DNA from: Planctomycetia bacterium | GTDB taxonomy: Bacteria; Planctomycetota; Planctomycetia; Pirellulales; JACPPG01 | Length of the DNA: 64,000 nucleotides | NCBI GenBank assembly: GCA_016191115.1 | Contig: JACPPG010000005.1 | Coordinates: forward strand, 23,119 to 87,118 | Direction of reading: 5' to 3' | In this document: piece by piece, positions 1-60,621 of the stretch | Layout: each line of letters begins with the position of its first letter | How positions within the stretch are numbered: position 1 is the stretch's first letter | Notes under the pieces: model-generated | The model's database searches: none | The model's input: the letters and a program-made list of their open reading frames with translations, nothing else | Told to the model about the DNA's origin: nothing | Made by a program: the position numbers and the translations under genes

Positions 1-1
1 G

Positions 2-3000
2 GCATTTTTCACCGGCGAAACCGCCAGTGGCTGGCAACAAGTCAATCTCGCCACGCCTGTCTACATCCAGGCAAACACCGTCTACATCGTTTCGTACTAC
101 GCCCCCAAGGGGCGCTACTCGGCCGATCGCAACTATTTCGTGTCGCAGGGCATCGATAACGGCCCGCTGCACGGCCTGTCGCAAGGCCCAAGCGGCCCCG
201 ATGGCGTGTTCGTCTACGGCAATAGCGCGTTTCCGACGAACACCTACCAGTCGTCGAACTACTATGTCGACGTCGTGATCAACACGGCCATCGTTAGCGA
301 CACAATGCGGCCCAAGATCATCTCGTACGCGGCCGCGGATGGGTCGAGCGTGCTCACGACGGATTCGTCGATCATCATCAAGTTCAGCGAGGCCCTGAAC
401 GCGGCGTCGGTCAACAGCACGAGCGTGCAACTCTTGAACCCCGATCTCACGAGCATCCCGCCCGGTTGCTGCGGCACGCCCGGTGGCTGGTGCACCGGCT
501 GCCCGTTACTGCAAGCCGCCTCGACGCGGGTCATCAACGCCACGGTCGTCTACGACGCGGTGAACTACACGGTGACGCTGACGCCGACTGCGCCGCTATC
601 CACCCTGCAGACTTACACGGTCTTTTTGAAGAGCGGTTCGCAGGGCGTATACGACGTGGCCGGCAACTCGCTCGCGGCCGATTCCGGCGCCTCGTTCCTC
701 ACACCCTCGCAGCCGGCTTCGACGCGGTCTACAATCTGGCCCACGTCCGCCACGCCCGCCACCGTCGACGTGGGCGAGGCAAAAGCGGTCGAGCTGGGCA
801 CGAAGTTCTACGCCGACACCAGCGGCACCATCGCCGGCATTGAGTTCTACAAGAGCGCCGCCAATACGGGCGTGCACACTGGCAGCCTGTGGTCGGCCAC
901 CGGGCAATTGCTGGCGACCGGCACGTTCACCGGCGAAACGGCCAGCGGCTGGCAACAGCTCACGTTCACCACGCCCGTGGCGGTCACGGCCGGCACCACG
1001 TACGTCGCTTCGTACCACACGGACAGCGGCCGTTTCTCGGTCGACAAGAACTACTTCACCTCGCAATTCAACAGCGGTTTGCTGCACGTTCCGGCCGACG
1101 GTGGCGTGTATCTCTACGGCACGGGCGGCTTCCCGACACAAACCAACCTGTCGAGCAACTATTGGGTGCAGCCGATCCTGCGTACTCCGATCACCACCGA
1201 CAATACGGCGCCGACAATCCTCAGCATCTCGCCGGCGGCCGGCACGACCGGCGTCTCCGTCACTCCGACGATCACCGCGCAGTTCAGCGAGGCGCTCGAT
1301 CCCACGACCGTCAGCACTAACACGCTGCGGCTGATGGACAACAGCAACCAACTGGTGCCCACCAGCGTGACGTACAACGAGCAGACGTTCATGGCGACCA
1401 TCGTGCCGACGTCGGCCTTGTCGTTCGGCGGCATGTACACGATCGTCGTCGCCGGCGGCGCGCAGGGCATTCGCGACATGGCCGGTAACCCGGTCGCCCT
1501 GACTACGGGATCGAGCTTTACCACCGTTGGTGCTCCGGTGCCCGATACGACGCCGCCGATGGTGATCGCGGTCAATCCGGCCAACAATGCCACAGGTTAC
1601 GCGGTGAACGGCGCGATCACGGTCACTTTCAGCGAACCGCTCAATGCCGCCTCGGTCAACGCGGCCAGCGTCATCCTGCTGAAGAACGCCCTGTCGCGGA
1701 TCGTGACGACCGTCACGTACAACGCGGCCAGCAATTCGATCACCATCACGCCCACCGCGCCGCTGGAGTACGGCAGCAACTACACGGTTTATCTTGTCGG
1801 CGGGGTGACGGGCATCCGCGACCTGTCGGACAACGCGATGACGCCGAACTACTCGTCGTCGTTCACGACCGTGGCCGCTCCGCCACCGGCTAGCCTGTGG
1901 AGCACCTCCACGACGCCTGGCACCGTCGACGGCGGCGACACACAGTCGATCGAAGTGGGCGTGAAATTCACGGCCGACTCCAATGGTTACATCATCGGAG
2001 TGCGCTTCTACAAGAGCGCGGCCAACACCGGCACGCACGTCGGCAATCTGTGGTCGGCAAGCGGGCAACTATTGGCCACCGGCACGTACTCCGGTGAGAC
2101 GGCCAGCGGATGGCAGACGCTCACGTTTGCCACGCCCGTCGCGATCACCGCCGGCACTACCTATACGGCATCATATCTGGCGCCGAAGGGGCGTTACGCG
2201 GCCGACACGAACTTCTTCAACGCGCAATTCAACAGCGGACCGCTGCACGTCCCCGCCAGCGGCGGCGTCTATCGGTACGGCGCCACGAGCGGCTTCCCCA
2301 CGAGCACGTTTTCGAAGAACAACTACTGGGTCGACGTGTTGTTCAGCCTCACGCCGCCGGCGGATACCACGCCGCCGACGGTGACCGCCATGTCCCCGGC
2401 CAATGGCGCGACGAACGTCCCGACGAACGTGGCCGCCACGGTGCGGTTCAGTGAGGCGATCAATACCACGTCGCTGTCGAGCAGCACGCTGCAGATCCTG
2501 GACGGCACGACGCTCGTGCCCGCCACGATCACCTACGACGCCAACACGAACACGGCGACGATCGCGCCGGTCAGCCCGTTGGCGAATTCCCGCACCTATA
2601 CGCTGTCGGCGACCGGCGGCATCCCGGGTCTCAAGGACACGTCCGGCAACAACCTGGCGCAGACCACTTCGACGACCTTCACGACGGCCGCCGTCGACGT
2701 GACGGCGCCGACGGTCACTTCGTTCAACCCCACGAATAACGCCAGCAGCGTGGCGACCAGCGCCACGGTAACGGTCACGTTCAGCGAGGCGGTCGATCCC
2801 ACGACCGTCAACGCGACGACCGTGTCGCTGCTCACCAACACGAACGCCGTTATGGCCGCGACGGTTAGCTACAATCCCGCGACCAGCACCGCGACGTTGA
2901 CCCCGACCAGTCCGCTGGCAAACTCCGCCAGCTACACGATCGTCGTGCAGGGTGGGGTGGCCGGCGTGCACGACCTTGCCGGCAACGCCCTGGCCGCGAA

Positions 3001-5044
3001 CGCGACGTCCGCTTTCCAAACCGTCGCTTCATCCAATGGCGGCGGTGGTGGCGGCACTGGTGGCACGACGAGCTCGTCGACGAGCTTGTGGACGACGACC
3101 ACTCCGGCCACGGCCGACGTCGGCGAGCCACAATCACTCGAATTGGGCGTCAAGTTCACTTCCAACGCCAATGGGTACATCACGGGCCTACGCTTCTACA
3201 AGAGCACCGCGAACACCGGCACTCACGTTGGCCACCTGTGGACGAGCTCCGGCCAGTTGTTGGCCACCGCCACGTTCACTGGCGAGACGGCCAGCGGCTG
3301 GCAGCAAGTCACGTTCGCCACGCCCGTAGCGATCACGGCCGGCACGACGTACGTAGCTTCGTACTTTGCCCCGAACGGCCACTTCGCCGTCAATCGCAGC
3401 TACTTCAAGAGCGCGTTCACGAGCGGACAACTGCAAGTCCCCGCCAATGGCGGCGTCTTCATGTATGGTGCGGCAAGCGCCTTCCCGACCCAGACCTACG
3501 GCAGCAGCAACTACTGGGTCGACGTGATGTTGTCGACGGCGCCGCCTGTCGACACGACTGCGCCGACGGTGACCGGTTTCAGCCCGGCCGGCGGCGCGAC
3601 GAACGTCGCCGTCAGTACGCCGATCACGATCACATTCAGCGAGGCGCTTAGCGCGGCTTCGGTCACCACGAGCACCGTGCGCTTGCTGGACGGCGCTACT
3701 CAAGTGGCGGCCACCGTGGCCTACAACGCCGGCAACAACACGGTCACGATCACGCCCACCGCGGCCCTCGCCAACTCGAAGGCGTACACGATTTCTGTCC
3801 TGGGCGGCGCGAGTGGCGTGAAGGACGCGGCCGGCAACGCCCTGGCGCAAACCGCCACGTCCACCTTCACGACCGTCGCGGCGCCGCCTGTCGATACGAC
3901 TGCGCCGACGGTGACCGGTTTCAGCCCGGCCGGTGGTGCGACAAGCGTCGCCGTCAATACGGCGATCACGGTGACATTCAGCGAAGCGCTTAGCGCGGCT
4001 TCGGTCACCACGAGCACCGTGCGGTTGCTGGACGGCAGCACGCAGGTGGCTGCCACCGTGGCCTACAATGCCGCGAATAACACCGTCACCGTCACGCCCA
4101 CCGCGGCCTTGGCCAACTCGAAGGCCTACACGATTTCTGTCCTGGGCGGCGCGAGTGGCGTGAAGGACGCGGCCGGCAATGCCCTGGCACAAACGGCCAC
4201 GTCGACCTTCACCACGGTCGCGGCAACGCCTCCCGACACGACTCCGCCCACCGTGACCGGTTTCAGCCCGGCCAGTGGCGCGACGAACGTCGCCATCAAC
4301 ACGGCGGTCACGGTGACGTTCAGCGAAGCGCTTAGCGCGGCCTCGGTCACCACGAGCACTGTCCGGCTGCTGGACGGTGCCACTCAGGTGGCGGCCAGCG
4401 CGTCCTACAACGCCACGAATAAGACGGTCACCATCACGCCCACGGCGGCCCTGGCCAACTCGAAGGTCTATACGATCTCGGTTGTGGGCGGCTCGGCAGG
4501 CGTGAAGGACGCGGCCGGCAATGCCTTGGCGCAGACCGCCACGTCGACCTTTACCACCGTCGCGGCGCCCGTCACGACGTCGAGCCTGTGGAGCGCTTCG
4601 ACGACGCCGAAGACAGTCGACGTCGGCGAGCCGCAAGCCATCGAGTTGGGCGTCAAGTTCACCGCCGACGTCAATGGCTACATCACGGGCATACGGTTCT
4701 ACAAGAGTTCGGCCAACACCGGCACGCACATCGGGAACCTGTGGAGCAGCACGGGCCAGCTTTTGGCCACGGCCACCTTCACCAACGAAACCGCTAGCGG
4801 CTGGCAGCAAGTCACTTTCTCGACGCCGGTGGCGGTCACGGCGGGCACGACGTACGTGGCCTCGTACTATGCACCCAACGGGCGCTTCTCGGTGAATCGC
4901 AACTACTTCGGCAGCGCGTTCACGAGCGGCCTGCTGCGCGTGCCCGCTAGCGGCGGTGTCTTTAAGTACGGCTCGTCGAGTGCATTCCCCGACCAGACGT
5001 TTAACGCCAGCAACTACTGGGTGGACGTGGTGTTCTCAAGCTAG
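2..5044 (+). CDS. Giant exported repeat protein (5' end outside window) with alternating DUF4082 domains and bacterial Ig-like (SbsA/Big_5-type) domains
   Basis: The frame of the 140..5044 ORF stays open back to nt 2. AFFTGETASGWQQV...YYAPKGRYSADRNYF is the tail of a further DUF4082 unit, so the listed start at 140 is internal. Five DUF4082-like units are present (..KF.....GYI.G.RFYKS.ANTG.H.G.LW...GQLLA...F.GETASGWQ..TF..PV....GTTY.ASY......). They are separated by 1-3 Ig-like units (DTT.PTV....P..GATNV......TFSEA...ASV...TV.LL). Stop at 5042-5044. Confidence 0.9.
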   Translation, partial: AFFTGETASGWQQVNLATPVYIQANTVYIVSYYAPKGRYSADRNYFVSQGIDNGPLHGLSQGPSGPDGVFVYGNSAFPTNTYQSSNYYVDVVINTAIVSDTMRPKIISYAAADGSSVLTTDSSIIIKFSEALNAASVNSTSVQLLNPDLTSIPPGCCGTPGGWCTGCPLLQAASTRVINATVVYDAVNYTVTLTPTAPLSTLQTYTVFLKSGSQGVYDVAGNSLAADSGASFLTPSQPASTRSTIWPTSATPATVDVGEAKAVELGTKFYADTSGTIAGIEFYKSAANTGVHTGSLWSATGQLLATGTFTGETASGWQQLTFTTPVAVTAGTTYVASYHTDSGRFSVDKNYFTSQFNSGLLHVPADGGVYLYGTGGFPTQTNLSSNYWVQPILRTPITTDNTAPTILSISPAAGTTGVSVTPTITAQFSEALDPTTVSTNTLRLMDNSNQLVPTSVTYNEQTFMATIVPTSALSFGGMYTIVVAGGAQGIRDMAGNPVALTTGSSFTTVGAPVPDTTPPMVIAVNPANNATGYAVNGAITVTFSEPLNAASVNAASVILLKNALSRIVTTVTYNAASNSITITPTAPLEYGSNYTVYLVGGVTGIRDLSDNAMTPNYSSSFTTVAAPPPASLWSTSTTPGTVDGGDTQSIEVGVKFTADSNGYIIGVRFYKSAANTGTHVGNLWSASGQLLATGTYSGETASGWQTLTFATPVAITAGTTYTASYLAPKGRYAADTNFFNAQFNSGPLHVPASGGVYRYGATSGFPTSTFSKNNYWVDVLFSLTPPADTTPPTVTAMSPANGATNVPTNVAATVRFSEAINTTSLSSSTLQILDGTTLVPATITYDANTNTATIAPVSPLANSRTYTLSATGGIPGLKDTSGNNLAQTTSTTFTTAAVDVTAPTVTSFNPTNNASSVATSATVTVTFSEAVDPTTVNATTVSLLTNTNAVMAATVSYNPATSTATLTPTSPLANSASYTIVVQGGVAGVHDLAGNALAANATSAFQTVASSNGGGGGGTGGTTSSSTSLWTTTTPATADVGEPQSLELGVKFTSNANGYITGLRFYKSTANTGTHVGHLWTSSGQLLATATFTGETASGWQQVTFATPVAITAGTTYVASYFAPNGHFAVNRSYFKSAFTSGQLQVPANGGVFMYGAASAFPTQTYGSSNYWVDVMLSTAPPVDTTAPTVTGFSPAGGATNVAVSTPITITFSEALSAASVTTSTVRLLDGATQVAATVAYNAGNNTVTITPTAALANSKAYTISVLGGASGVKDAAGNALAQTATSTFTTVAAPPVDTTAPTVTGFSPAGGATSVAVNTAITVTFSEALSAASVTTSTVRLLDGSTQVAATVAYNAANNTVTVTPTAALANSKAYTISVLGGASGVKDAAGNALAQTATSTFTTVAATPPDTTPPTVTGFSPASGATNVAINTAVTVTFSEALSAASVTTSTVRLLDGATQVAASASYNATNKTVTITPTAALANSKVYTISVVGGSAGVKDAAGNALAQTATSTFTTVAAPVTTSSLWSASTTPKTVDVGEPQAIELGVKFTADVNGYITGIRFYKSSANTGTHIGNLWSSTGQLLATATFTNETASGWQQVTFSTPVAVTAGTTYVASYYAPNGRFSVNRNYFGSAFTSGLLRVPASGGVFKYGSSSAFPDQTFNASNYWVDVVFSS
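3539..4564 (+). repeat. Three tandem 342-bp (114-codon) near-identical Ig-like domain repeats inside the giant protein gene
   Basis: Units start at 3539, 3881 and 4223 (GCGCCGCCTGTCGA.ACGACTGCGCCGACGGTGACCGGTTTCAGCCCGGCC...). By eye they are roughly nine-tenths identical at the nucleotide level, much closer than the other Ig-like units. Confidence 0.9.
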
Positions 5045-5097
5045 GAACGATTGGCCGCATAGCGTCGCCAATTCAGACGAGCCGCGCAAGTCGCGGA

Positions 5098-6165
5098 TCA
5101 AGCGGCCCGCGTACGGCGATTCCGCCGGAGCCAGTGGCGCGCCTGATTCAGCAACCACTTGCGGTTCTGCCGCAGGCGCCGCTCTTGCGCGCGGAACCGT
5201 TCGAGGAATAGCTCGATACGTGGCGCAGGCGCCGGGCGCCAGCCGGCCCAGGCGGTGCGATCGACGTACTTGAAGAACTCCCCGCGCATCGGATGCCGGC
5301 ACAGTGGCCGCCAGGGTTTGTCGCGCGTCGTAAAGTGCACGATGTACGGATCGTCGCGCAACTGCTCGAACGTCTGGCGATCGAACGGGCTCCGCTTCCA
5401 CGTCGGGTACGCATAGGCGTGCATGCCTTGGTTCCAACGCATGTCGAGCCGTCCCCACCGGTCCGCAAGCACCACGTTCAAGGCGTACTGATCCCACCAT
5501 TGGACGTGCTGACGGTTGCGGTCCAGGCATTCGAGCGCCAGTCGCGCGATGCCGGCACTCCGCCAGGCAGTCAAGTCGGCGAGCAGCACGCCGGCATTGA
5601 AATAGGCGGCGTCGGCCGGCAGTCCCAGCGCCTGAAAATTCGGCACGGGACGCGCCGATCCCATGTAGGGTGCACAAGACGGGTAGTTCGCCAGTGCCTC
5701 GGCCGCGTCCATGTAGGGCGCCGCACAGTCTTGCGCCGCCAGGCACCACGCGCCGGCAAAGTCGCTATCCCAAAGTCGTCCAAGATCGGCGCGGATCACG
5801 AGATCGGCGTCGAGGTAGATCGCGCGCCGCAAGTCGGCCGGCAACACACGCTCCATCAGGATGCGGAAGTAGGTGACAAGATTGACGTGCCCCGATTCCG
5901 GCAGCCCGGCCAGCTTTGAAGCATCGATCCGCAGCCACTCGACTTGATAGCGGCCGTCGGGCCAGGATCGCAGGAGCCGGTTCTTCGTGGCCTCAAGTAT
6001 GCCCGCGTCCAACACGTAGACGCGCAGCCGTCGATCGCCTGCCAGATTGTCGAGCGCCGAGCGGACGGTGGCCGCCAAGGGCATGGCGAAGTTTTCGTCC
6101 GCGGCCAGCACGACGATCGGGTGGCGGTCCGCGGGAACGGTGCCTGCTGCCTGCGTTGATGTCAC
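5098..6165 (-). CDS. Glycosyltransferase family 8 (LPS/glycogenin-type retaining GT)
   Basis: GT8 features are IVVLAADENFAMPLAATVRSA, the DxD motif in YLDADLVI, and YFNAGVLLADL. The first ~129 codons of the 5098..6552 ORF look non-coding and contain no Met. An in-frame GTG at 6165 (VTSTQAAG...) is the most plausible start, so the start is uncertain. Confidence 0.75.
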   Translation of the reverse strand: MTSTQAAGTVPADRHPIVVLAADENFAMPLAATVRSALDNLAGDRRLRVYVLDAGILEATKNRLLRSWPDGRYQVEWLRIDASKLAGLPESGHVNLVTYFRILMERVLPADLRRAIYLDADLVIRADLGRLWDSDFAGAWCLAAQDCAAPYMDAAEALANYPSCAPYMGSARPVPNFQALGLPADAAYFNAGVLLADLTAWRSAGIARLALECLDRNRQHVQWWDQYALNVVLADRWGRLDMRWNQGMHAYAYPTWKRSPFDRQTFEQLRDDPYIVHFTTRDKPWRPLCRHPMRGEFFKYVDRTAWAGWRPAPAPRIELFLERFRAQERRLRQNRKWLLNQARHWLRRNRRTRAA

Positions 6166-12697: not shown

Positions 12698-12854
12698 CAG
12701 GGCCGTTCACAGATTCAAGCTTGCCGGCGGCGCACCGGCGGGAAAGTGGGACAGGCACCGAGACGCAACGCCCGTCTGAAAGGACTTGCGCTGTTTATGC
12801 TCGGAGCCAGTCCCATTTTCCCGCCTCGCCATTTTGAAAAACAGAATGGCCCTG
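12698..12854 (+). mobile_element. 157-bp MITE-like element, copy A
   Basis: CAGGGCCGTTCACAG...CAGAATGGCCCTG, near-identical to five other copies. The flanking 10-mers are CACGTGGCCC (12688-12697) and CACCTGCCCC (12855-12864), 8 of 10 identical. Confidence 0.85.
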
Positions 12855-16552: not shown

Positions 16553-17715
16553 GGAGCGGGCCTATGGCGGCCGACCGTGAGGGAAGAGCGGGCAACAAAT
16601 GGCTGCTTTGAGTTTAGTCGGCCCAGGAGACGGAGCCAACCGAACTGTCCGGCGACTTGCCCAGGGCCGTTCACAGATTCAAGCTTGCCGGCGGCGCACC
16701 GGCGGGAAAGTGGGACAGGCACCGAGACGCAGCGTTGGTATGAAAGGGCTTGCGCTGTTTGTGCTCGGAGCCAGTCCCATTTTCCCGCCTCGCCATTTTG
16801 GCCCTTCCCGTCCGGCGGCCGGCGGCGGCGGTCTTCGTTCGGGCGATCGATTCGGCCCTCGGCACCGCGATCTTCGAGGGCCGCCCTGTTCTTGCGGAAT
16901 TCGTGGCGGAACCACAGGCGGCGCAATTCGACTTGCATCTCGTCATAGGGCAGGCTCAACAGCCGCGACCGTTCCTCGTCGCGAACCTCCTCTTTGAGGA
17001 ACTGCTGCAGTTCCTCCTCGCTCGGCCGGCGCAGGCCTGCGAACTGCTTTCCTGGCCCTCCATGCCGCCGCGCTTGCTCAAACCAGCTCCACAAAAGCTT
17101 CGCGCGCTCCGACGGCTTTTCCGCCTTGTCCAGCTTGTCTTGTGCCTCGGCCGAGAGTGACTCGCGCAACTGCTGCAAGGCCGCACGATCTTCGGGTGAC
17201 GGGCCAGGACGGGCTCCCTCCGGCTGCCGGGCCTGCCACCGCTTTCGCATGAAGTCGTGCTTCAGGAACCAGGCCTCGATCGCCTCCAAATCCTGGGGGC
17301 TCAGCTTGTTGGCCTGGCGGCGGCGCTGCGCTTCGAGAATCTTGTCGATCTTCTTCAGCCGCTCCGCTGGCTCAAGCGATGCCAGGTCCGCGCGGTCCCC
17401 GGGCGGCAGCTCGCTGAGCCAGTCGTGATAGTTCTGCATCACCTTCCGCAGGTCGTCCTTGTCCGCGGCCGTGTCCAAGTCGTCATTCAACCGGCGCAGG
17501 CGGTCCTGCTGCGCGGGGTCGAGCCGCTGGAAGCGCTGGAAGTTCTGCGACAGCCGCTCCTTCTCCTCCTCATCGGCTTGAGCGAGCCGGGCCCGACGCT
17601 CGGGCGTACCATCCGCGCCCGCGGCCGGCAGGGCCCACGTCAGGACGGCGGCCACGGCAGTCAGCGACCCAAGGACAAACGACGCCGCACGAAGTTTGGC
17701 ATGTCTAGCGATCAT
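16276..17715 (-). CDS. Exported coiled-coil/Arg-Glu-rich protein of the ECF operon (DUF3106-like); C-terminus apparently extended by read-through into MITE copy B
   Basis: A signal anchor (LGSLTAVAAVLTWALPAAGA) is followed by a charged helical region with RW/LSP..R repeats down to about nt 16806. Downstream of that point the frame runs through the repeat element, then overlaps the start of the GT2 gene by 277 nt before the first stop at 16276. The native coding part is probably 16806-17715. Confidence 0.6.
   Translation of the reverse strand: MIARHAKLRAASFVLGSLTAVAAVLTWALPAAGADGTPERRARLAQADEEEKERLSQNFQRFQRLDPAQQDRLRRLNDDLDTAADKDDLRKVMQNYHDWLSELPPGDRADLASLEPAERLKKIDKILEAQRRRQANKLSPQDLEAIEAWFLKHDFMRKRWQARQPEGARPGPSPEDRAALQQLRESLSAEAQDKLDKAEKPSERAKLLWSWFEQARRHGGPGKQFAGLRRPSEEELQQFLKEEVRDEERSRLLSLPYDEMQVELRRLWFRHEFRKNRAALEDRGAEGRIDRPNEDRRRRPPDGKGQNGEAGKWDWLRAQTAQALSYQRCVSVPVPLSRRCAAGKLESVNGPGQVAGQFGWLRLLGRLNSKQPFVARSSLTVGRHRPAPCLLTGPPPLVLPVVFTSCALSPRVTTRPPDCGGFMKRCDRRLQVLRIAKARLCSWTTAAAMPRRGFWRNFPEKIQPSASFRCRETLDIKSP
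16662..16805 (+). mobile_element. 157-bp MITE-like element, copy B (3' end rearranged)
   Basis: Same sequence as copy A, but 12 nt (AAAAACAGAATG) are missing before the terminal GGCCCT and no clean flanking duplication is present. It lies inside the 3' part of ORF 16276..17715. Confidence 0.8.
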
Positions 17716-21010: not shown

Positions 21011-21167
21011 CAGGGCCATTATGTTTTTCAAAATGGCGAGGCGGGAAAATGGGACTGGCTCCGAGCAGAAACAGCGCAAGTCCTTTCAGACCAACGTTGC
21101 GTCTCGGTGCCTGTCCCACTTTCCCGCCGGTGCGCCGCCGGCAAGCTTGAATCTGTGAACGGCCCTG
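21011..21167 (-). mobile_element. 157-bp MITE-like element, copy C (inverted orientation)
   Basis: The reverse complement matches copies A/D/E/F end to end. The flanking 10-mers CGGCGCCTGC and TGTCGCCCGC are 7 of 10 identical. Confidence 0.85.
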
Positions 21168-23509: not shown

Positions 23510-23656
23510 GACTCGATCCCTTGTAGCAAGCCCGCTGGCCAGGTTCGGCAGACAAGTTCCCCGCGGCCGGGGAGGGGCATAAATGCCGCCAACAACACAA
23601 TCGGCAATGGCGCCCGCGGCGTCAAGCGCGTGAGGTTTGGCGGGCGCATTGGGGAT

Positions 23657-23745
23657 CGGGAGGGCGAGGCTCCTGCCGAGCCGCAGCCGCGAAAGACGTC
23701 GTTTTCGTCCCGGCTCGGCAGGAGCCTCGCCCAGCTTCGCCCTCC
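23657..23745. repeat. GC-rich palindromic repeat, GGGAGGGCGAGGCTCC.GCCGAGCCG family, copy 1
   Basis: The left arm at 23657-23682 pairs with CGGCTCGGCAGGAGCCTCGCC at 23710-23730. The right arm carries an extra CAGCTTCGCCCTCCC. Confidence 0.8.
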
Positions 23746-32287: not shown

Positions 32288-32444
32288 CAGGGCCGTTCAC
32301 AGATTCAAGCTTGCCGGCGGCGCACCGGCGGGAAAGTGGGACAGGCACCGCGACGCAACGTTGGTCTGAAAGGACTTGCGCTGTTTATGCTCGGAGCCAG
32401 TCCCATTTTCCCGCCTCGCCATTTTGAAAAACAGAATGGCCCTG
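32288..32444 (+). mobile_element. 157-bp MITE-like element, copy D
   Basis: Full-length copy flanked by a perfect 11-bp direct repeat AGGAGCAATTG (32277-32287 and 32445-32455). Confidence 0.9.
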
Positions 32445-32732: not shown

Positions 32733-33164
32733 CTACGAAATCGCGGCGATCGCACGAAACGTCGCCTCGTCCAGGAACACCGCCTCGCGCGTGAGTTGAA
32801 TCATCACGGCAGTCCCCGGCCAGCCACAAGCCGACAGGAGCCGATCGAACTGTTCGGCGGGGCAGGTCCCCTTCAAATCGACGAACAAAAGTCGCCCGTC
32901 GCGGTCGTAAAGCACGCCGTCGACTTGCCAGCAGCGATCGCTCGTGGCCGGAGACACCCACACGAACGAGCCATCGGGCTCGATGTACATTCGCGGCAGT
33001 CGGGCCAGCGCCGCGGCGGCCGCTTCAAAGCTCACGGGAAACGCCGTCGCCAGCCCCTCGGGCGACAATTGCAACGTGGGATAAGCGCGGCCGCGGCGCG
33101 AAATCGTGCCGGCCGCGGTCACGTCGGCCGGGCGGGCGTGCAGGGTGATGTGGAAGGAGTACAT
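32733..33164 (-). CDS. Hypothetical protein
   Basis: 143-codon ORF with protein-like composition and no motif I recognise. It is bounded by repeat elements on both sides. Confidence 0.5.
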   Translation of the reverse strand: MYSFHITLHARPADVTAAGTISRRGRAYPTLQLSPEGLATAFPVSFEAAAAALARLPRMYIEPDGSFVWVSPATSDRCWQVDGVLYDRDGRLLFVDLKGTCPAEQFDRLLSACGWPGTAVMIQLTREAVFLDEATFRAIAAIS

Positions 33165-33171
33165 CGGGAGT

Positions 33172-33263
33172 CGGGAGGGCGAGGCTCCCGCCGAGCCGAA
33201 CTCTTTGAGTGATTAGATCGACGTCAATTGTAGCGCCGGCTCAGCAGGAGCTTCGCCCTCCCG
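33172..33263. repeat. GC-rich palindromic repeat, GGGAGGGCGAGGCTCCCGCCGAGCCG family, copy 2
   Basis: The left arm 33172-33198 pairs with the right arm 33236-33263 (three mismatches, 37-nt spacer). The right arm overlaps the last codons of cutA. Confidence 0.8.
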
Positions 33264-33594
33264 TGTTATCCGACTGTGGCGGCACCTCCGCGTCGATCCA
33301 ATCGAGATACGCCTGGCTTCCCGACGCGATCGGTGTGGCCACGATTTCGGGCACCTGGTAGGGGTGCAGCTCGCGGATCGCCGTCTCAACGCGCGCGTAC
33401 AGGTCGCCGCGGGTTTTGGCGATGCATTGCCATTCGGTGGCAGTCTGCACTTTGCCTTCCCAGCGAAAAGTGCTGGTGATCGGCCCCGCCACTTGCACGC
33501 AAGCGGCCAGCCGCCGTTCGACGAGCGCCGCGGCGATCCGCTGCGCATCTTCCTTTGTCTCTGCGGTGGTGATGACTTGGATGTAGTTGGGCAT
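33241..33594 (-). CDS. cutA: Divalent-cation tolerance protein CutA
   Basis: Typical CutA1 sequence (A..IA..LVE..LAACV......S.F.W.G......E......KT.......V...I...HPY..PEI). Confidence 0.85.
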   Translation of the reverse strand: MPNYIQVITTAETKEDAQRIAAALVERRLAACVQVAGPITSTFRWEGKVQTATEWQCIAKTRGDLYARVETAIRELHPYQVPEIVATPIASGSQAYLDWIDAEVPPQSDNTGGRSSC

Positions 33595-38293: not shown

Positions 38294-38450
38294 CTGGGCC
38301 GTTCACAGATTCAAGCTTGCCGGCGGCGCACCGGCGGGAAAGTGGGACGGGCACCGAGACGAAACGTTGGTCTGAAAGGGCTTGCGCTGTTTATGCTCGG
38401 AGCCAGTCCCATTTTCCCGCCTCGCCATTTTGAAAAACAGAATGGCCCTG
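38294..38450 (+). mobile_element. 157-bp MITE-like element, copy E
   Basis: Full-length copy whose first bases are CTGGGCC instead of CAGGGCC. It is flanked by a perfect 10-bp direct repeat CGTCCCCGCC (38284-38293 and 38451-38460). Confidence 0.9.
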
Positions 38451-43126: not shown

Positions 43127-43283
43127 CAGGGCCGTTCACAGATTCAAGCTTGCCGGCGGCGCACCGGCGAGAAAGTGGGACAGGCACCGAGACGCAACGT
43201 TCGTCTGAAAGGACTTGCGCTGTTTATGCTCGGAGCCAGTCCCATTTTCCCGCCTCGCCATTTTGAAAAACAGAATGACCCTG
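43127..43283 (+). mobile_element. 157-bp MITE-like element, copy F
   Basis: Full-length copy flanked by a perfect 10-bp direct repeat CCACCCGAGA (43117-43126 and 43284-43293). Confidence 0.9.
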
Positions 43284-48690: not shown

Positions 48691-49614
48691 TCAGCGCCGC
48701 GTCGCCGCCCGCCGCCAGCGGCGCATCATCACCAGCGCACACGCGCCCACAAACGCCAGGCCGATCCCGGCCGGCTCGGGCACCGCGTTGACGATCACGT
48801 CGTCCAGGATCGGCTGCGTGCCGAAGGCCGACATGCCGTACGCGCTCAAGTCCATCCCTCCCCAACTGACGAATGCGACGTCCACCGGTTGCGAGGCGTT
48901 GAGCGGCGTGAACGAGAATTCAAAAAGGTGCGAAAGGCCGTACTGAATCGCGTTGGGCACCGCCAGCCATTGGATGGGATCGCCTGGCAGCACGTTGGTC
49001 ACCCGCAGCCCGATGATGCCGGCCCCCGTGAAACCCTGGTTGGTCGAGTTCTCTTCGCCCGAGATCCAGAAGCTCAAGCTGTACGAAGGCGCCGGCGTCA
49101 GTTCGGTGTGGACTAACTGGTGCAAAATGACCGGGGCACCGGCCACCGACGTGAAGGTCGGCGGTGCCGGGAACGTGACGGTCGCGTTGGCGTTGAACGT
49201 CGGCTGCTGGCTGACGGTGGTGCCGGCGCTCGTGTGAAAATCGACGGCGGCCCGCCCATCCGGCAGCACGTCGCTCAGCCGCAGGTGATACGGCGTCGGC
49301 AGGCCGTCGTTCCCCCATCGCGCCGTGCTATTGGCGCCGCTGCTCAACCAGCCCGGCGGAACGGCGTAGGGCGAGTTGAGGGGGTTGGCCCAAAAGTTGG
49401 CGTTGGCAAGTCCGTCGGGCGGGGCCGCAATCTCGAAGCTGCCGTTGACGACGATGTTGCCGGCATGGGTCGTGCCCAAGCCGCTGGCAATCGTCAGCGC
49501 GGCCTGCGCCGGGGACGCGAGACACAAGAGGAGGGCGCAGCCGAGACAGGGCGAGAGCGTGGACAGGACGATTCTCAGGGCATCGGGGCGGGTTTTGCGT
49601 GCGTGGCGAATCAT
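48691..49614 (-). CDS. PEP-CTERM sorting-domain protein
   Basis: C-terminal VPEPAGIGLAFVGACALVMMRRWRR. The signal peptide starts at ATG 49614 (MIRHARK...CLASPAQA). Confidence 0.85.
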   Translation of the reverse strand: MIRHARKTRPDALRIVLSTLSPCLGCALLLCLASPAQAALTIASGLGTTHAGNIVVNGSFEIAAPPDGLANANFWANPLNSPYAVPPGWLSSGANSTARWGNDGLPTPYHLRLSDVLPDGRAAVDFHTSAGTTVSQQPTFNANATVTFPAPPTFTSVAGAPVILHQLVHTELTPAPSYSLSFWISGEENSTNQGFTGAGIIGLRVTNVLPGDPIQWLAVPNAIQYGLSHLFEFSFTPLNASQPVDVAFVSWGGMDLSAYGMSAFGTQPILDDVIVNAVPEPAGIGLAFVGACALVMMRRWRRAATRR

Positions 49615-49724
49615 TGGCGTTCTCCGACAAATCGAGGAAAGGCTTCGAGGAAACAGACCCGCGGCCAGCTTAACCTGCGGCGGGGCGCGGGCAAGCGCGA
49701 CTTTGGGATTTTCGCGTGTCGGCA

Positions 49725-49849
49725 CAGGAGAACTGCAAAGTCCGGGGTCTGGCTCATTTTGTCGGCACCTGCGGTTCTCGATTCTTCCGACGGACTTTCG
49801 GCCGACAAATGTGCCTGACCCCCTCTCCCAGGACTTTGCAGTTCTCCCG
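49725..49849 (+). mobile_element. Second MITE-like family (about 125 bp, 19-bp TIR), copy 1
   Basis: CAGGAGAACTGCAAAGTCC ... GGACTTTGCAGTTCTCCCG gives TIRs matching at 18 of 19 positions. The interior is largely self-complementary (CATTTTGTCGGC / GCCGACAAATG). Confidence 0.8.
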
Positions 49850-49895
49850 CTTGTCGCCACGCATTTCTTGCCTCTGCCCGCTCGAAACGTGTACC

Positions 49896-51317
49896 GTGGG
49901 TGCGGCGTCATGTTCAAGGGAACGACCTCGCGTGGCACTCTCGCTCAAATCCGTCTGCCGGCGACTGTTCACGACCACGTACGCGCCGGACCCCACGCTC
50001 CGCACGTTCCTCGACCGCGCCCAGACGCAGCGGGGCGAGCTGGCCGAGGTGACGGTGGCCGTTCTCGACGCGCGCGAGAGCGAGCAATTCTTTGGCGTCC
50101 ACGTGGCCCGGCGGGGGATTCAGCCGGTTTACCTGCGGATCGCGAATCGGTCGGCTCAAAGCCTGCGGCTGCAGCCGGTGAGCATCGACCCGAACTACTA
50201 CACGCCGCTGGAAGCCGCCGGGGTGAATCATTTCTCGATCGCCAAGCGCCTTTCGGCGTTCGGCGTCCTGGCCATTTGGTTCCTCGTGCCTTTGCTCGTC
50301 TTTGCGCCGCTGAAACTGATCACGGCCTATCGGGCGAATCGCCGGATGAGCGAGTTCTTCCGCGCGCACGCGTTCCATCTCCGCCCGATCCCGCCCGGCG
50401 AGTTGGCGGAAGGCTTCGTCTTCACGCCGCTCGATGCCGGCACCAAAGTCGTGCACGTGCGATTGCAAGCGACGGGCGAATCGCTCGACGAGATGATTCG
50501 CACGGCCCAGGCCGCCGCGGCGAAACGCGACCCGGCTGCACGCTCGCCAGAATCGACCGCCGCGGCTCCGGCGAGTGCCGAGTTTGTCTTCTCGATCCCC
50601 GTCCCCGGCATCGCCGCCGACTATCTTCGCCGCGACTTTGAGACGCTCATCCCGCCCGGCGCGCTGGTGTCTTGCAACGTCCGCACGTTGGTCGAGCGGG
50701 TGTGTGCCATGCCCGCCGCCACTACCAACGCCAAGGACGCGCGTCCGGGCGATCCGGCCAATCTGGTCGTGATCGGCGATTTTGACAGGCTGATGAGCGG
50801 GTTCGCCGCGCGGTGGGATGAAAGCGAGACGATCTCGCTGGCGACGTGCTGGAAAACGGTGCGGGCGTTTCTCCTCGGCTCGGACTACCGTTATTCGCCG
50901 GTCAGCCCGTTGCACCTGTTCGGCCGCAGCCAGGACGTCGCCTTGCAGCGGACGCGGCGATCGATCAACGAGCGATTGCACCTGCGGCTGTGGCTGACGC
51001 CGCTCGTGTTCCGCGGGCAGCCGGTGTGGGTCGGCCAGGTCAGCCGCGACATCGGCGTGCGATTCACGACGCGGGCTTGGAACCTGACGACGCACCGCAT
51101 CGACCCCGATGTCGACGAAGCGAGAGACTACGTTCTGGAGGACCTGCTTCAGGCCGGCCGGATCGAGGCGGCCGGGTACGTCGACGGCGTCGGCCCCTGC
51201 GACCGCGCGTCGCCGCGGCACAACCTCACCGGCGACCCGTACTTCACCGACGGCAAGCGGGCCGTGATCCTGCTGTCGAGCATGCGGACGACGCCGCTTT
51301 TCGTGGCGTGGAGCTGA
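49896..51317 (+). CDS. LssY-like C-terminal domain protein
   Basis: The C-terminal region INERLHLRLW.....G.PVWVGQVSRDIG.........THRIDPDVDEAR matches my memory of the LssY_C family. The first 45 codons of the listed ORF are MITE sequence. In-frame GTGs at 49896 and 49932 are candidate starts. Confidence 0.65.
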   Translation: MGAASCSRERPRVALSLKSVCRRLFTTTYAPDPTLRTFLDRAQTQRGELAEVTVAVLDARESEQFFGVHVARRGIQPVYLRIANRSAQSLRLQPVSIDPNYYTPLEAAGVNHFSIAKRLSAFGVLAIWFLVPLLVFAPLKLITAYRANRRMSEFFRAHAFHLRPIPPGELAEGFVFTPLDAGTKVVHVRLQATGESLDEMIRTAQAAAAKRDPAARSPESTAAAPASAEFVFSIPVPGIAADYLRRDFETLIPPGALVSCNVRTLVERVCAMPAATTNAKDARPGDPANLVVIGDFDRLMSGFAARWDESETISLATCWKTVRAFLLGSDYRYSPVSPLHLFGRSQDVALQRTRRSINERLHLRLWLTPLVFRGQPVWVGQVSRDIGVRFTTRAWNLTTHRIDPDVDEARDYVLEDLLQAGRIEAAGYVDGVGPCDRASPRHNLTGDPYFTDGKRAVILLSSMRTTPLFVAWS

Positions 51318-51325
51318 TTGCGTAG

Positions 51326-52345
51326 CTACAGCACGTCGCGGCGCAGTTGGGGGAATACTTTCGAGACCTTGGCGAGCAAATAGTCGCCGTACGTGCCGCT
51401 GACCTCGTGGACGCTCGCGCGGTCCCAACGCTCGTGCCGATCGTCTTCGAGCGCGTGGCCGGCGAGCTCCTCGATGGGCCGTACCTCGGCCGCAAAGTTG
51501 GGATCGAAAAAGAACGGGAACGACAGCCGGTCGCGGCCGCTTTTGTTCAGCACGCGATGCGGCGTCGAGCGGTACAGGCCGCGCGTCAGTCGATCGAGCA
51601 TGTCGCCGATATTGCAGATGAACGAGCCGGGGATCGGTGGCGCGTCGACCCACCGGCTGCGGCTTTTCACTTGCAATCCGCCCACCTCGTCCTGCCAGAG
51701 CATCGTCAATAGTCCGTAGTCGGTGTGCTCGCCGACGCCCCAGCGGGCATCATCGGCGGGCCGTGGCGGCGGCGCGGGATAGTTGAAAATGCGAAAGAGT
51801 ATCAGCGGATCGCCCGTGTAGCGGTCGGCGAAATAATTTTCGTCGAGGCCAAGGCTGAGCGAGATGCCGGCCATCAGCCGGTGGCCCAATTGCGTCATCG
51901 CGGCCAGGTATTCGAGCACCACTTCGCGGAACGACGGGATGTCGGGAAAGAGATTCGCGCCGCACAGCGGCGTGCCGGCAAGCACCGCCAAGTCATCCGC
52001 CGGCAGCTCGGCCCCGAAGTAGAGCCCCTCCTTTTGATCGGGCTTGCCCGAGGTCAGCTCGTCACCGACGGCGAAATAGCCGCGCCAGGCACGGCCGCCG
52101 CGGGCCATGGCGATGTTCATCTTTTCGGCCGCGCTCAAGGCGAAGAACTGCCGGCTGAGCTGTTCCAGGCACGGGCACAGCCCACGGTCGACCCCATGTC
52201 CGACAACGTAGAAGAAGCCAGACTCGCGGCACGCCGCGCCAATTTGCCGGGCCACGTCCTCGCGCGCGGGCGCCCCGGCCACGAGCGGCGCGACGTCGAT
52301 CACAGGAACTTGTGCAAACTCGGCGAGTGGTGAGGTCGACGTCAT
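51326..52345 (-). CDS. 2-oxoglutarate/Fe(II)-dependent oxygenase (isopenicillin N synthase-like family)
   Basis: N-terminal VPVIDV.....GFFYV.GHG. HxD in EHTDYGLLT. Distal STPHRV and RLSFPFF. Start at ATG 52345. Confidence 0.85.
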
Positions 52346-52540
52346 CGAAGCTTGCTCAGTCGTAGCCGTAGGGTGCTCCGCGAGCACCATTTCATCGGCC
52401 TCGTGCAGGATACTCGACGGAAGATGGAACCGCCAAGAACGCCAAGGCCGCCAAGGTTTGCGGTAGGGTGCGGTACAATGCGCGCGGTTCCCGTCGCCCA
52501 GGCAAGCCCCCCACAACGCGCGCGAGCGCTGGAGTCCCTC

Positions 52541-53122
52541 ATGAGCAAAGGACGGCTGGAAGCGTTTAGCGACGCCGTGATCGCGATCATCATCACGATC
52601 ATGGTGCTGGAGCTCAAGGCGCCGGAAGACGCGGAATTGGTCGCGCTACGGCCCCTTGTGCCGGCCCTCTTGAGCTACGTGCTCAGCTTCGTGTTCGTCG
52701 GCATTTATTGGAACAACCATCACCACCTGCTGCAGGCGGTGCGGCACGTCGACGGCCGGGCCCTGTGGGCGAACATGCATTTGCTGTTCTGGATTTCCCT
52801 CATCCCGTTCGTCACCAGTTGGATGGGTTCATCCCGCTTTGCCGCCTGGCCCGTCGCCGCGTACGGTGTGATCCTGCTCATGGCGGCCGTGGCGTACCTG
52901 ATTCTGACGCGCGTGCTGGTGGCCCGGCACGGCAAGGATTCGCCGCTGGCCGTGGCCGTCGGGGCCGACGTGAAGGGCAAGCTGTCCTTGGTGCTCTATG
53001 CGGTCGCCGTGCCGGCGACGTTCGTCCATCGCGGGATCGCCTGCGCGATTTACGTCCTGGTGGCGGTGATGTGGCTCGTGCCTGACCGGCGCATCGAACG
53101 GACGCTTATCGAGGCGGGCTAA
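52541..53122 (+). CDS. TMEM175-family (DUF1211) potassium channel
   Basis: Signature [20 protein letters not shown] at the N-terminus and six TM helices. Start at ATG 52541. Confidence 0.85.
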
Positions 53123-53187
53123 GGGCCTTGCCTCCGTCGATAGAATACGTGCGTACAGGAAAGCGTGTTTCCGCAGGGAGGAGAAGA

Positions 53188-54057
53188 ATGTCCACCAAGC
53201 AAATCAAGAGAATCGTCCGCGATGTGCCTGGCCATTGGGTCGGCGACGGCTTCCCGGTCCGCAGCCTGTTCACGTACGCGGAAGCGGACCTGTTCGACCC
53301 GTTCTTGCTCTTGGACTACGCCGCGCCGCACACGTTCGCCCCGTCGTCGGGCGAGCCGCGCGGCGTCGGTGAGCATCCTCACCGCGGCTTCGAGACGGTT
53401 ACGATCGTTTACCAAGGGGAGCTCGAGCATCGGGACTCGGCGGGCCACCACGGCGCGATCGGTCCCGGCGACGTGCAATGGATGACGGCCGCCTCGGGCG
53501 TGGTACACGAGGAGTTCCACAGCCAGCGGTTCGCCCGCGCTGGCGGCACGTTCGAGGTGGTGCAGCTTTGGGTGAACTTGCCGGCGCGCGACAAGATGTC
53601 GGCGCCCCGGTATCAGGAGATCCTGGATCGGCAGATTCCGGTTGTGAAGCTGCCGGACGGGGCCGGAAGTGTGCGCGTGATCGCCGGCGAGCTAGCAGGC
53701 ACGAAAGGCCCGGCGCTGACATTCACGCCGGTGCAGCTTTGGGACGTGCAGTTGAGCGCCGGCGGCGCGGCGACGCTGCCGCTCGTGGACAATCACACGA
53801 CGGCGCTGGTCGTGCAAAGAGGCGACTCCACTGTGAATGATACCGAGACGGTTGCCGACGCCAGCCTGGTCCTGTTCGACCGCGCAGGCGATCAGATATC
53901 GCTCAAGGCGAAAGGTGAAGGCCGAGTCCTGCTGCTTTCCGGTCAGCCGATCGGCGAACCGGTCGTGGGGCAGGGACCGTTCGTCATGAACACCCGCGAC
54001 GAGATCCAACAAGCCATCCGCGACTTCCAGGCCGGCCGCATGGGGCGGCTTGCGTAG
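53188..54057 (+). CDS. Pirin family protein
   Basis: HPHRGFETVTIVYQGELEHRDS metal-binding motif and a bicupin length. SD GGGAGGAG lies before ATG 53188. Confidence 0.9.
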   Translation: MSTKQIKRIVRDVPGHWVGDGFPVRSLFTYAEADLFDPFLLLDYAAPHTFAPSSGEPRGVGEHPHRGFETVTIVYQGELEHRDSAGHHGAIGPGDVQWMTAASGVVHEEFHSQRFARAGGTFEVVQLWVNLPARDKMSAPRYQEILDRQIPVVKLPDGAGSVRVIAGELAGTKGPALTFTPVQLWDVQLSAGGAATLPLVDNHTTALVVQRGDSTVNDTETVADASLVLFDRAGDQISLKAKGEGRVLLLSGQPIGEPVVGQGPFVMNTRDEIQQAIRDFQAGRMGRLA

Positions 54058-54349
54058 TTGCCCGCGCCCAGCCTGTAGGTCAGGCAGGCCCCTGCCTGAC
54101 AAGCGCCGCGCAAGCGGCTTGCCGCGCATCTGTCCGCTTCGTTCGGCCAGGGCGACGAATAGATCCTGACGATCCGCCGCGGCCCGCATGGCCGACACGG
54201 CGGCCTGCCGCGCCTCGCGCATTTCTCGGTGGGGTCGCCCGGGCGGTGCAAGAGCTCCAGCCATTGCACGCCCAAGGCTCCCGCACGCGCAGCGGGCAGT
54301 GTATTATAGGGCCTTAGTTCGCTCGAATTGCTTCCTGGCACGAGGCCGG

Positions 54350-54473
54350 CAGGAGAACGGCAAAGTCCTGGGAGAGGGGGTCAGGCACATTTTTCGGCCG
54401 AAGGTCCTTCGGGAGAATTGAAAACCGCGTGCGCCGAAAAATGGGCCGGACCCCGGACTTTGCAGTTCTCCTG
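54350..54473 (-). mobile_element. Second MITE-like family, copy 2 (inverted relative to copy 1)
   Basis: CAGGAGAACGGCAAAGTCC ... GGACTTTGCAGTTCTCCTG. It is flanked by CGAGGCCGG (54341-54349) and CGAGGCCGC (54474-54482), an 8-bp direct repeat CGAGGCCG. Confidence 0.85.
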
Positions 54474-54603
54474 CGAGGCCGCGGCACAAACCCGTGGCTT
54501 GCCGTTCGTCGGTTCCGGGCGAGTCGTCGAGGACGGCGTCCATCCTTGCGGCCCACCCGATTCGACTCGCCTCCGAAGGTCGACCGTCTACCGAATACCT
54601 CAC

Positions 54604-60456: not shown

Positions 60457-60515
60457 CAAGCGTGCGCGCTCGCGTTGACCGTCCAAGCCTGCTCGCGCAT
60501 GCTGGGAGTGGCACT

Positions 60516-60588
60516 CGGGAGGGCGAGGCTCCCGCCGAGCCGTGGCGTCAGCAAGAAGGCACGGCTCGGCGGGAGCCTCGCCCTCCCG
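60516..60588. repeat. GC-rich palindromic repeat, GGGAGGGCGAGGCTCCCGCCGAGCCG family, copy 3 (perfect)
   Basis: CGGGAGGGCGAGGCTCCCGCCGAGCCGTG (60516-60544) pairs with CACGGCTCGGCGGGAGCCTCGCCCTCCCG (60560-60588) across a 15-nt loop. It lies between egtB and the ABC ATPase gene. Confidence 0.85.
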
Positions 60589-60621
60589 GTTGCCCTGCTC
60601 CAGGCACATGAGACCCAAACG

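Follow-up and report, generated by a model that had tools for sequence, protein, structure and literature searches.

Insertion sequences (ISs) of the ISAs1 family carry inverted repeats (IRs) of 14–22 bp that start with CAGGG, and are flanked by 10-bp direct repeats (PMC11946415). ISArsp11, for instance, has the IR CAGGGCTGATGCAAAGTCG and a 10-bp direct repeat (PMC6305408). Among short palindromic units of another kind, the repetitive extragenic palindromic sequences (REPs), GTAG serves as a tag (PMC3733652). Here, we have analyzed a 64-kb stretch of DNA (the window, by which we mean the whole stretch) from a metagenome-assembled genome (MAG) annotated as Planctomycetia bacterium (locus-tag prefix HYX69). 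It contains two copies, which we call copy 1 and copy 2, of a short hairpin element with terminal inverted repeats (TIRs). Our best explanation, to which we give a probability of roughly 0.9, is that both are copies of a non-autonomous miniature inverted-repeat transposable element (MITE) that has the TIRs of a clade of ISAs1-family ISs of 1.24–1.28 kb and would be mobilized in trans, with a 10-bp staggered cut. The partner IS clade is found in Planctomycetes, in genomes of the Pirellulales/Thermoguttaceae type.

A repeat search of the window recovers copies 1 and 2 as inverted pairs, with a global identity of 0.89 over the element. When the alignment is extended by 25 nt on each flank, the similarity remains confined exactly to CAGG...CC(C/T)G, the flanks being unrelated. 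The element ends are 19-bp TIRs (CAGGAGAACKGCAAAGTCC) that match each other at 18 of 19 positions within each copy. The window contains the TIR 17-mer GGAGAACNGCAAAGTCC four times, always at an element end, while 0.57 occurrences are expected by chance, and none of 100 shuffled sequences gave four or more. Either strand of either copy is predicted to fold as a single long hairpin of −67 to −71 kcal/mol (z-scores from −6.4 to −8.7), and 0 of 200 shuffles fold as well as the copies. The copies have no coding capacity, since the open reading frames (ORFs) that run across them are start-codon artefacts of the neighbouring genes, and their length of 124–125 nt is below the ~300 bp expected of MITEs. 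No third copy was detected in the window by nhmmer with a profile of the subfamily to which both belong. The initial annotation of this DNA had described a MITE-like element in two inverted copies, around 85–90% identical, with 19-bp TIRs and the ability to fold as one long hairpin. Its coordinates were right and all of these features stand, while the MITE-like nature gains support from the copies found elsewhere, the flanking duplications and the ISs with matching TIRs that are described below.

The same TIRs delimit complete ISs. On a Planctomycetota MAG contig (L026, positions 343–1580), a TIR pair lies 1.24 kb apart around two overlapping ORFs that carry the domains DDE_Tnp_1_assoc and DDE_Tnp_1 (PF13808 and PF01609) and correspond to the NCBIfam model NF033564, ‘ISAs1 family transposase’. 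When the two frames are joined at an A AAA AAG site, the product is a protein of 374 aa, which scores 161.9 bits against NF033564 (cutoff 70) and spans positions 1–313 of the 314 in the model. Scanning metagenomes with this protein, we obtained 80 loci. Among these are more than 45 full-length ISs, generally of 1.24–1.28 kb with a few of 1.34–1.58 kb, all bounded by CAGGAGAACTGCAAAGTC...GACTTTGCAGTTCTCCTG and several (for example L111, L125, L127 and L157) flanked by perfect 10-bp target-site duplications (TSDs). The MITE ends match those of these ISAs1-type ISs over 18–19 nt. No similarity links the 87-nt interior of the MITE to that of the full-length ISs, so that the MITE is not a simple internal-deletion derivative of them. 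A tblastn search with the transposase against the window and the genome loci that carry the 17-mer (at least 109, see below) returned L026 only. As a separate observation, the IS on this contig lies inside an IS701-family transposase gene (DDE_5 / NF049999; L026:2-345) and has no recognizable 10-bp duplication; either the nesting of one IS in another or a chimeric assembly might explain this arrangement.

The length of the TSD can be established from the copies in other genomes. In 41 testable copies, we compared the k-mers abutting each end and found a sharp optimum at k=10, directly abutting CAGG...CCTG. Twelve copies show a perfect 10-bp duplication, ten a match at 9 of 10 positions and four at 8 of 10, that is, at least 8/10 in 26 of the 41. 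As a control, we displaced the right 10-mer by 30 nt, and the maximum was then 6/10. Two copies have duplications of 11 bp, and 9 bp fits a few. These values correct the flanking duplication of 8 bp that had been assigned to the element at first. The 2-nt offset attributed to the duplication of copy 1 also vanishes, being explained by reading the flanks as abutting 10-mers (CGTGTCGGCA and CTTGTCGCCA, 8/10) instead of 8-mers. For copy 2, CGAGGCCG is indeed present on both sides, as had been claimed, but the left one stands 1 nt away from the TIR; its duplication is best read as 9 bp (8/9), or as 10 bp with a 1-nt deletion. The predicted pre-insertion sites would be ...GGGATTTTCG-C[G/T]TGTCG[G/C]CA-CGCATTTCTTG... 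for copy 1 and ...CTTCCTGGCA-CGAGGCCG[G/C]-GGCACAAACCC... for copy 2.

To place the element in a broader context, we scanned genomes for the TIR 17-mer, taking one genome per species; the taxon counts are lower bounds. The scan gave at least 109 loci and, together with the window, at least 42 TIR pairs spaced 92–167 nt apart. Among the matches listed, the real elements come almost entirely from Planctomycetota MAGs (Thermoguttaceae, Lacipirellula, Bythopirellula, Pirellulales and ‘Planctomycetaceae’), with a single exception in a MAG labelled Granulosicoccus (L020). Several single 17-mer matches in non-Planctomycete genomes were discarded as chance matches because, in these unrelated phyla, they lack a partner TIR. 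A distant blastn search of PLSDB plasmids with copy 1 gave no match. Clustering of the interiors alone separates at least six subfamilies that share the TIRs, and that of the window has at least 13 copies in at least nine genomes, at unrelated loci, among the matches listed. Its 13-copy alignment reads, in order, a 19-bp TIR, the conserved arm GGGGTCTGGTCCATTTTTCGGC, a variable centre of ~35 nt, the complementary arm CCGAAAACATGGACCTGACCCC, an 8-nt bulge and the second TIR. The consensus fold of these copies comprises 35 pairs with 96.5% of the cells paired. Five of the pairs show compensatory double changes, such as T:A to A:T in L042 and L073, C:G to G:C in L084, and T:A to C:G in the window copies and L098. 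None of 500 shuffles reached the observed values, and slid controls gave 0–2. This covariation indicates that the palindromy is maintained, be it at the level of a DNA hairpin or cruciform, of end pairing, or of RNA, among which it does not distinguish. Two Logan contigs from the same sample as the MAG (SRR12113392; L190:1-29 and L192:1-28) end 28–29 nt inside the right-hand TIR region of the two window copies; independent assemblies that stop inside the copies are expected of a repeat with more copies than these two. Three of the checks that the initial annotation had proposed, for further copies, for the length of the TSD and for an IS with matching TIRs, have turned out in favour of a MITE: many genomes carry copies at loci unrelated to one another, 10-bp duplications are usual, and the matching ISs encode ISAs1-family transposases.

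The core differs from one subfamily with these TIRs to the next and is always strongly palindromic, with z-scores of −3 to −11 for the fold of the interior alone (at least six unrelated cores). In the same genomes, these cores also turn up naked or flanked by quite different TIRs: in L012, for example, the B core is bordered by GGTAACCGTTCACGG ends, and in L037 the C core has AGTGATACCGTTT ends. This distribution suggests that TIRs and hairpin modules are combined in a modular way.

According to our preferred reading, an ISAs1-family DDE transposase, supplied by a full-length IS elsewhere, would recognize the CAGGAGAACTGCAAAGTC ends and excise or copy the 125-nt unit, through either a cut-and-paste or a copy-out route. 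Insertion by a 10-bp staggered cut would then produce the 10-bp TSD. The palindromic core, which does not derive from the IS, extends the pairing of the TIRs to ~35 base pairs, so that the unit forms one long hairpin in single-stranded DNA or in RNA. Mobilization in trans itself is inferred. With an identity of 89% between them and duplications that have decayed to 8/10 and 8/9, the window copies are probably old and may be immobile; within some other genomes, the identity among copies is 95–98%. In every defining respect tested, the element is a typical bacterial MITE, of a kind already well known.

Some observations weigh against this interpretation. The IR of the MITE (19 bp) starts with CAGGA, with a G to A change at position 5 with respect to the CAGGG of the ISAs1 family. 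The duplications of both window copies are imperfect, and that of copy 2 fits 9 bp, not 10. Neither an ISAs1 transposase nor any further TIR was found in the 64-kb window. No empty site was found among relatives, since the collections hold no close relative of the source MAG and the LssY_C relatives compared are at most 78% identical and non-syntenic, while the nearest homologue of the condensation-like protein is a paralogue with 57% identity. Finally, we found no experimental mobilization of any ISAs1-derived MITE in the literature. As regards earlier descriptions, we came across no paper on ISAs1-derived MITEs or on MITE families in Planctomycetes.

One could argue that the repeats are instead a structured regulatory RNA (a 5′-untranslated region (5′-UTR) element, a small RNA or an attenuator), palindromic by coincidence and copied because it regulates several genes. 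The very stable hairpin, the compensatory changes in five pairs, unmatched by any of the 500 shuffles, and the position of both copies 83–130 nt upstream of start codons would all suit such a role. Yet no Rfam family is reached at the gathering threshold (permissive matches are at chance level, with E-values of 0.2–0.5), and the copies have opposite orientations relative to their downstream genes. Nor are the genes beside the copies related to one another, whether in the window or in different genomes. Conservation of both loci as syntenic regulatory sequences in relatives, the outcome against a MITE that the initial annotation had envisaged, is without support: around the closest LssY_C orthologues, which have 78% and 73% amino-acid identity, the gene neighbourhood is different. 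Neither intrinsic terminators nor sigma-70-like promoters are predicted in or beside the two copies, although planctomycete promoters may not fit the sigma-70 consensus. The copies are also flanked by 10-bp direct duplications and share their ends with a transposase-encoding IS, and we consider this explanation improbable, at about one chance in twenty. An inserted MITE may still have a secondary effect at the RNA level.

Two further alternatives can be considered. The unit could be a REP or a REPIN (REP doublet forming hairpins), moved as single-stranded hairpin DNA by a REP-associated tyrosine transposase (RAYT) or by an HUH transposase of the IS200/IS605 type. Indeed, the unit is a long hairpin, cores similar to those of the family occur without the TIRs, and some cores of sister subfamilies begin with GTAG (GTAGCAGGCAC..., GTAGCACGG...), the tag of REPs (PMC3733652). 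The ends of the window's subfamily, however, lack a GTAG or CGTC tag and match those of ISAs1 ISs over 18–19 nt. Moreover, HUH insertion gives no target duplication, while the copies here usually have one of 10 bp. Beside the copies, a non-systematic survey showed no RAYT-like gene. We deem this route very unlikely, even more so than a regulatory RNA. The least credible of the alternatives is that each copy is the remnant in situ of a full-length IS after an internal deletion, so that the copies would be independent decay products. Although the ends are those of the full-length IS and decayed duplications flank both copies, the 87-nt interior is unlike that of the IS and recurs in at least 13 copies from at least nine genomes. 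Independent deletions cannot account for an interior common to unrelated loci, and this shared, non-IS interior effectively refutes the idea.

Returning to the partner ISs of the MITE, their transposase gene shows an additional feature. In 39 of 43 full-length ISs (L026:343-1580; L112–L186), a −1 frameshift splits it at the same codon (aa 227–229; ~nt 775–810 of the IS). The shift site is a conserved slippery A/G run (CGA AAA AAG GGG, CGAAAAAAAGGGG, TAAAAGGGGGC or GAAAAAAGGGGG). A single ORF of at least 350 aa is found in 0 of 42 ISs, and three more distant relatives (L110, L146 and L153) are in one frame. The conservation of the split suggests programmed −1 frameshifting or transcriptional slippage. 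The ISAs1 family is usually described as single-ORF, and in the literature we found no paper on frameshifting in it. Besides, four metagenome contigs contain head-to-tail junctions of the same IS, in which the right inverted repeat (IRR) is joined to the left one (IRL) through a spacer of 10 bp, once of 9 bp (L126:1-60, L167:450-500, L176:1838-1885 and L181:1353-1400; for example ...GTTCTCCTG CGGTGAGCGG CAGGAGAAC...). Such contigs could result from circle junctions, from tandem dimers or from assembly effects and, should the junctions be real, would hint at a copy-out-paste-in pathway for ISAs1-type elements.

Taking these observations together with the modular cores, we entertain, as a tentative and rather doubtful possibility, that the ISAs1-type ends are a portable ‘mobilization cassette’ that has repeatedly been joined to pre-existing palindromic hairpin modules. 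The hairpin itself might then be selected, either by bringing the ends together for the transposase or by acting at the RNA level. The same scenario would have the partner clade rely on programmed −1 frameshifting, and its transposition might pass through a circular or tandem IRR-10 bp-IRL junction. If this were true, MITE families of Planctomycetes would be modular chimeras of TIRs and REP-like hairpins.

Regarding the genes around the element (Table 1), copy 1 lies between divergent starts, 111 nt upstream of that of the PEP-CTERM protein gene and ~83 nt upstream of that of the LssY_C gene, and is therefore inside a divergent promoter region. Copy 2 is ~290 nt 3′ of the pirin gene and 130 nt 5′ of the gene for the condensation-like protein. 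Both copies had initially been placed in 5′ intergenic regions. This is correct for copy 1 and half right for copy 2, which is 5′ of the condensation-like gene and downstream of pirin, because pirin is on the + strand. Lying 83–130 nt upstream of three start codons, the copies could be in 5′-UTRs and may affect the neighbouring genes; if they are transcribed, the stable hairpin would sit in those regions.

The window holds other repeats. A family of 157 nt is present in six copies, five of which are full-length and 96–98% identical, with ends CAGGGCCGTTCACAG...AATGGCCCTG (CAGGGCC...GGCCCTG) and the 10-bp duplications CGTCCCCGCC, CCACCCGAGA and GGAGCAATTG, the last of which can be read as 11 bp (AGGAGCAATTG). 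These repeats probably form another MITE family of ISAs1 type, younger than that of copies 1 and 2. The initial annotation had regarded the two MITE families of the window as unrelated, which is too strong a statement: the 157-nt family also has CAGGG...CCCTG ends and 10-bp duplications and, given that CAGG-type ends and duplications of this length are common to both families, both look ISAs1-type. A short GC-rich palindromic repeat, GGGAGGGCGAGGCTCCCGCCGAGCCG, occurs at positions 23647-23701, 33162-33198, 33219-33266, 60506-60594 and about 63216, singly and also as a 40-nt inverted pair (60510-60549 / 60555-60594); ISAs1 TIRs are absent from it. The hairpins of this REP-like family are similar in kind to those that serve as MITE cores in other genomes. 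Lastly, positions 1-5100 contain long tandem or dispersed coding repeats with periods of 342 and ~1188 nt (families D1, D2 and D4–D10), probably belonging to a giant repetitive surface protein.

Table 1. Positions of the MITE copies, their flanks, the neighbouring genes and related repeats (window coordinates unless a contig is given)
Feature	Position	Strand	Description
MITE copy 1	49725..49849	+	125 nt, in the orientation of the subfamily alignment; nhmmer E-value 2e-27
MITE copy 2	54350..54473	-	124 nt, inverted with respect to copy 1; nhmmer E-value 3.7e-30
Copy 1, left TIR	49725..49743	+	CAGGAGAACTGCAAAGTCC; identical to the left end of ISAs1-type ISs
Copy 1, right TIR	49831..49849	-	GGACTTTGCAGTTCTCCCG as read on the + strand
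Copy 2, TIR	54350..54368	+	CAGGAGAACGGCAAAGTCC
Copy 2, TIR	54455..54473	-	GGACTTTGCAGTTCTCCTG as read on the + strand
Copy 1, interior	49744..49830	+	Conserved complementary arms GGGGTCTGGCTCATTTTGTCGGC / GCCGACAAATGTGCCTGACCCC around a variable centre of ~35 nt, plus the 8-nt bulge CTCTCCCA; compensatory changes in 4 interior pairs of the 13-copy alignment
Copy 1, left TSD	49715..49724	.	CGTGTCGGCA; 8/10 with 49850-49859
Copy 1, right TSD	49850..49859	.	CTTGTCGCCA
Copy 2, left flanking duplication	54341..54349	.	CGAGGCCGG; 8/9 with 54474-54482
Copy 2, right flanking duplication	54474..54482	.	CGAGGCCGC
PEP-CTERM protein gene	signal-peptide Met ATG at 49614	-	Pfam
LssY_C protein gene	likely GTG start 49932	+	Pfam; start confirmed by a 100% identical database protein of 461 aa
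Pirin gene	53128-54057	+	Pfam
Condensation-like protein gene	ATG 54604	+	Pfam
157-nt repeat	12698-12854, 16662-16800 (truncated), 21011-21167 (-), 32288-32444, 38294-38450, 43127-43283		
Modular-core loci	L012:4939-5095, L012:803-930, L012:5262-5340, L037:6822-6935, L007:885-995, L023:690-750, L004:7565-7641, others		

With these results, a widespread repeat of Planctomycetes is tied to a defined transposase clade, with its TIR and its 10-bp TSD. For annotation purposes, we recommend masking both the 125-nt hairpins and the 157-nt family as ISAs1-type MITEs, so that they are not mistaken for regulatory motifs or for extensions of ORF starts; MITEs of this family also fragment short-read assemblies. 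To our knowledge, the mechanism of ISAs1 transposition has not been worked out, and these elements offer natural substrates for its study. The modular cores, the conserved −1 frameshift and the IRR-10 bp-IRL junctions would, if confirmed, be of interest to specialists in mobile DNA.

By comparing the element with known systems, we find that it shares with REPs and REPINs mobilized by RAYTs the nature of a short, intergenic palindromic repeat, together with the GTAG tag in some cores of sister subfamilies. In contrast to them, the window element has TIRs of DDE type, a 10-bp duplication and ends without the GTAG tag. The likeness to the ISAs1 family (for example ISAs1, ISArsp11 and Francci3_2330/2941 of Frankia) consists of a 19-bp repeat starting with CAGG, a 10-bp duplication and partners that belong to NF033564. 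Specifically, the IR of ISArsp11 shares 13 of 19 positions with the TIR of the MITE, including CAGG and the TGCAAAGTC block (PMC6305408). The differences are that the window elements are 125 nt long and encode nothing, that their fifth base is A instead of G, and that the transposase of the partner clade is split by a conserved −1 frameshift, in a family usually described as single-ORF. Finally, the classical MITEs, such as Correia/NEMIS of Neisseria, ERIC/IRU, RUP and Nezha, are equally non-coding units of ~100–200 nt with TIRs and a target duplication, forming long hairpins in intergenic positions near gene starts (PMC3733652). What sets the present element apart from them is that its parent is an ISAs1-family IS, that its host phylum is Planctomycetota, and that the same TIRs surround several unrelated cores.

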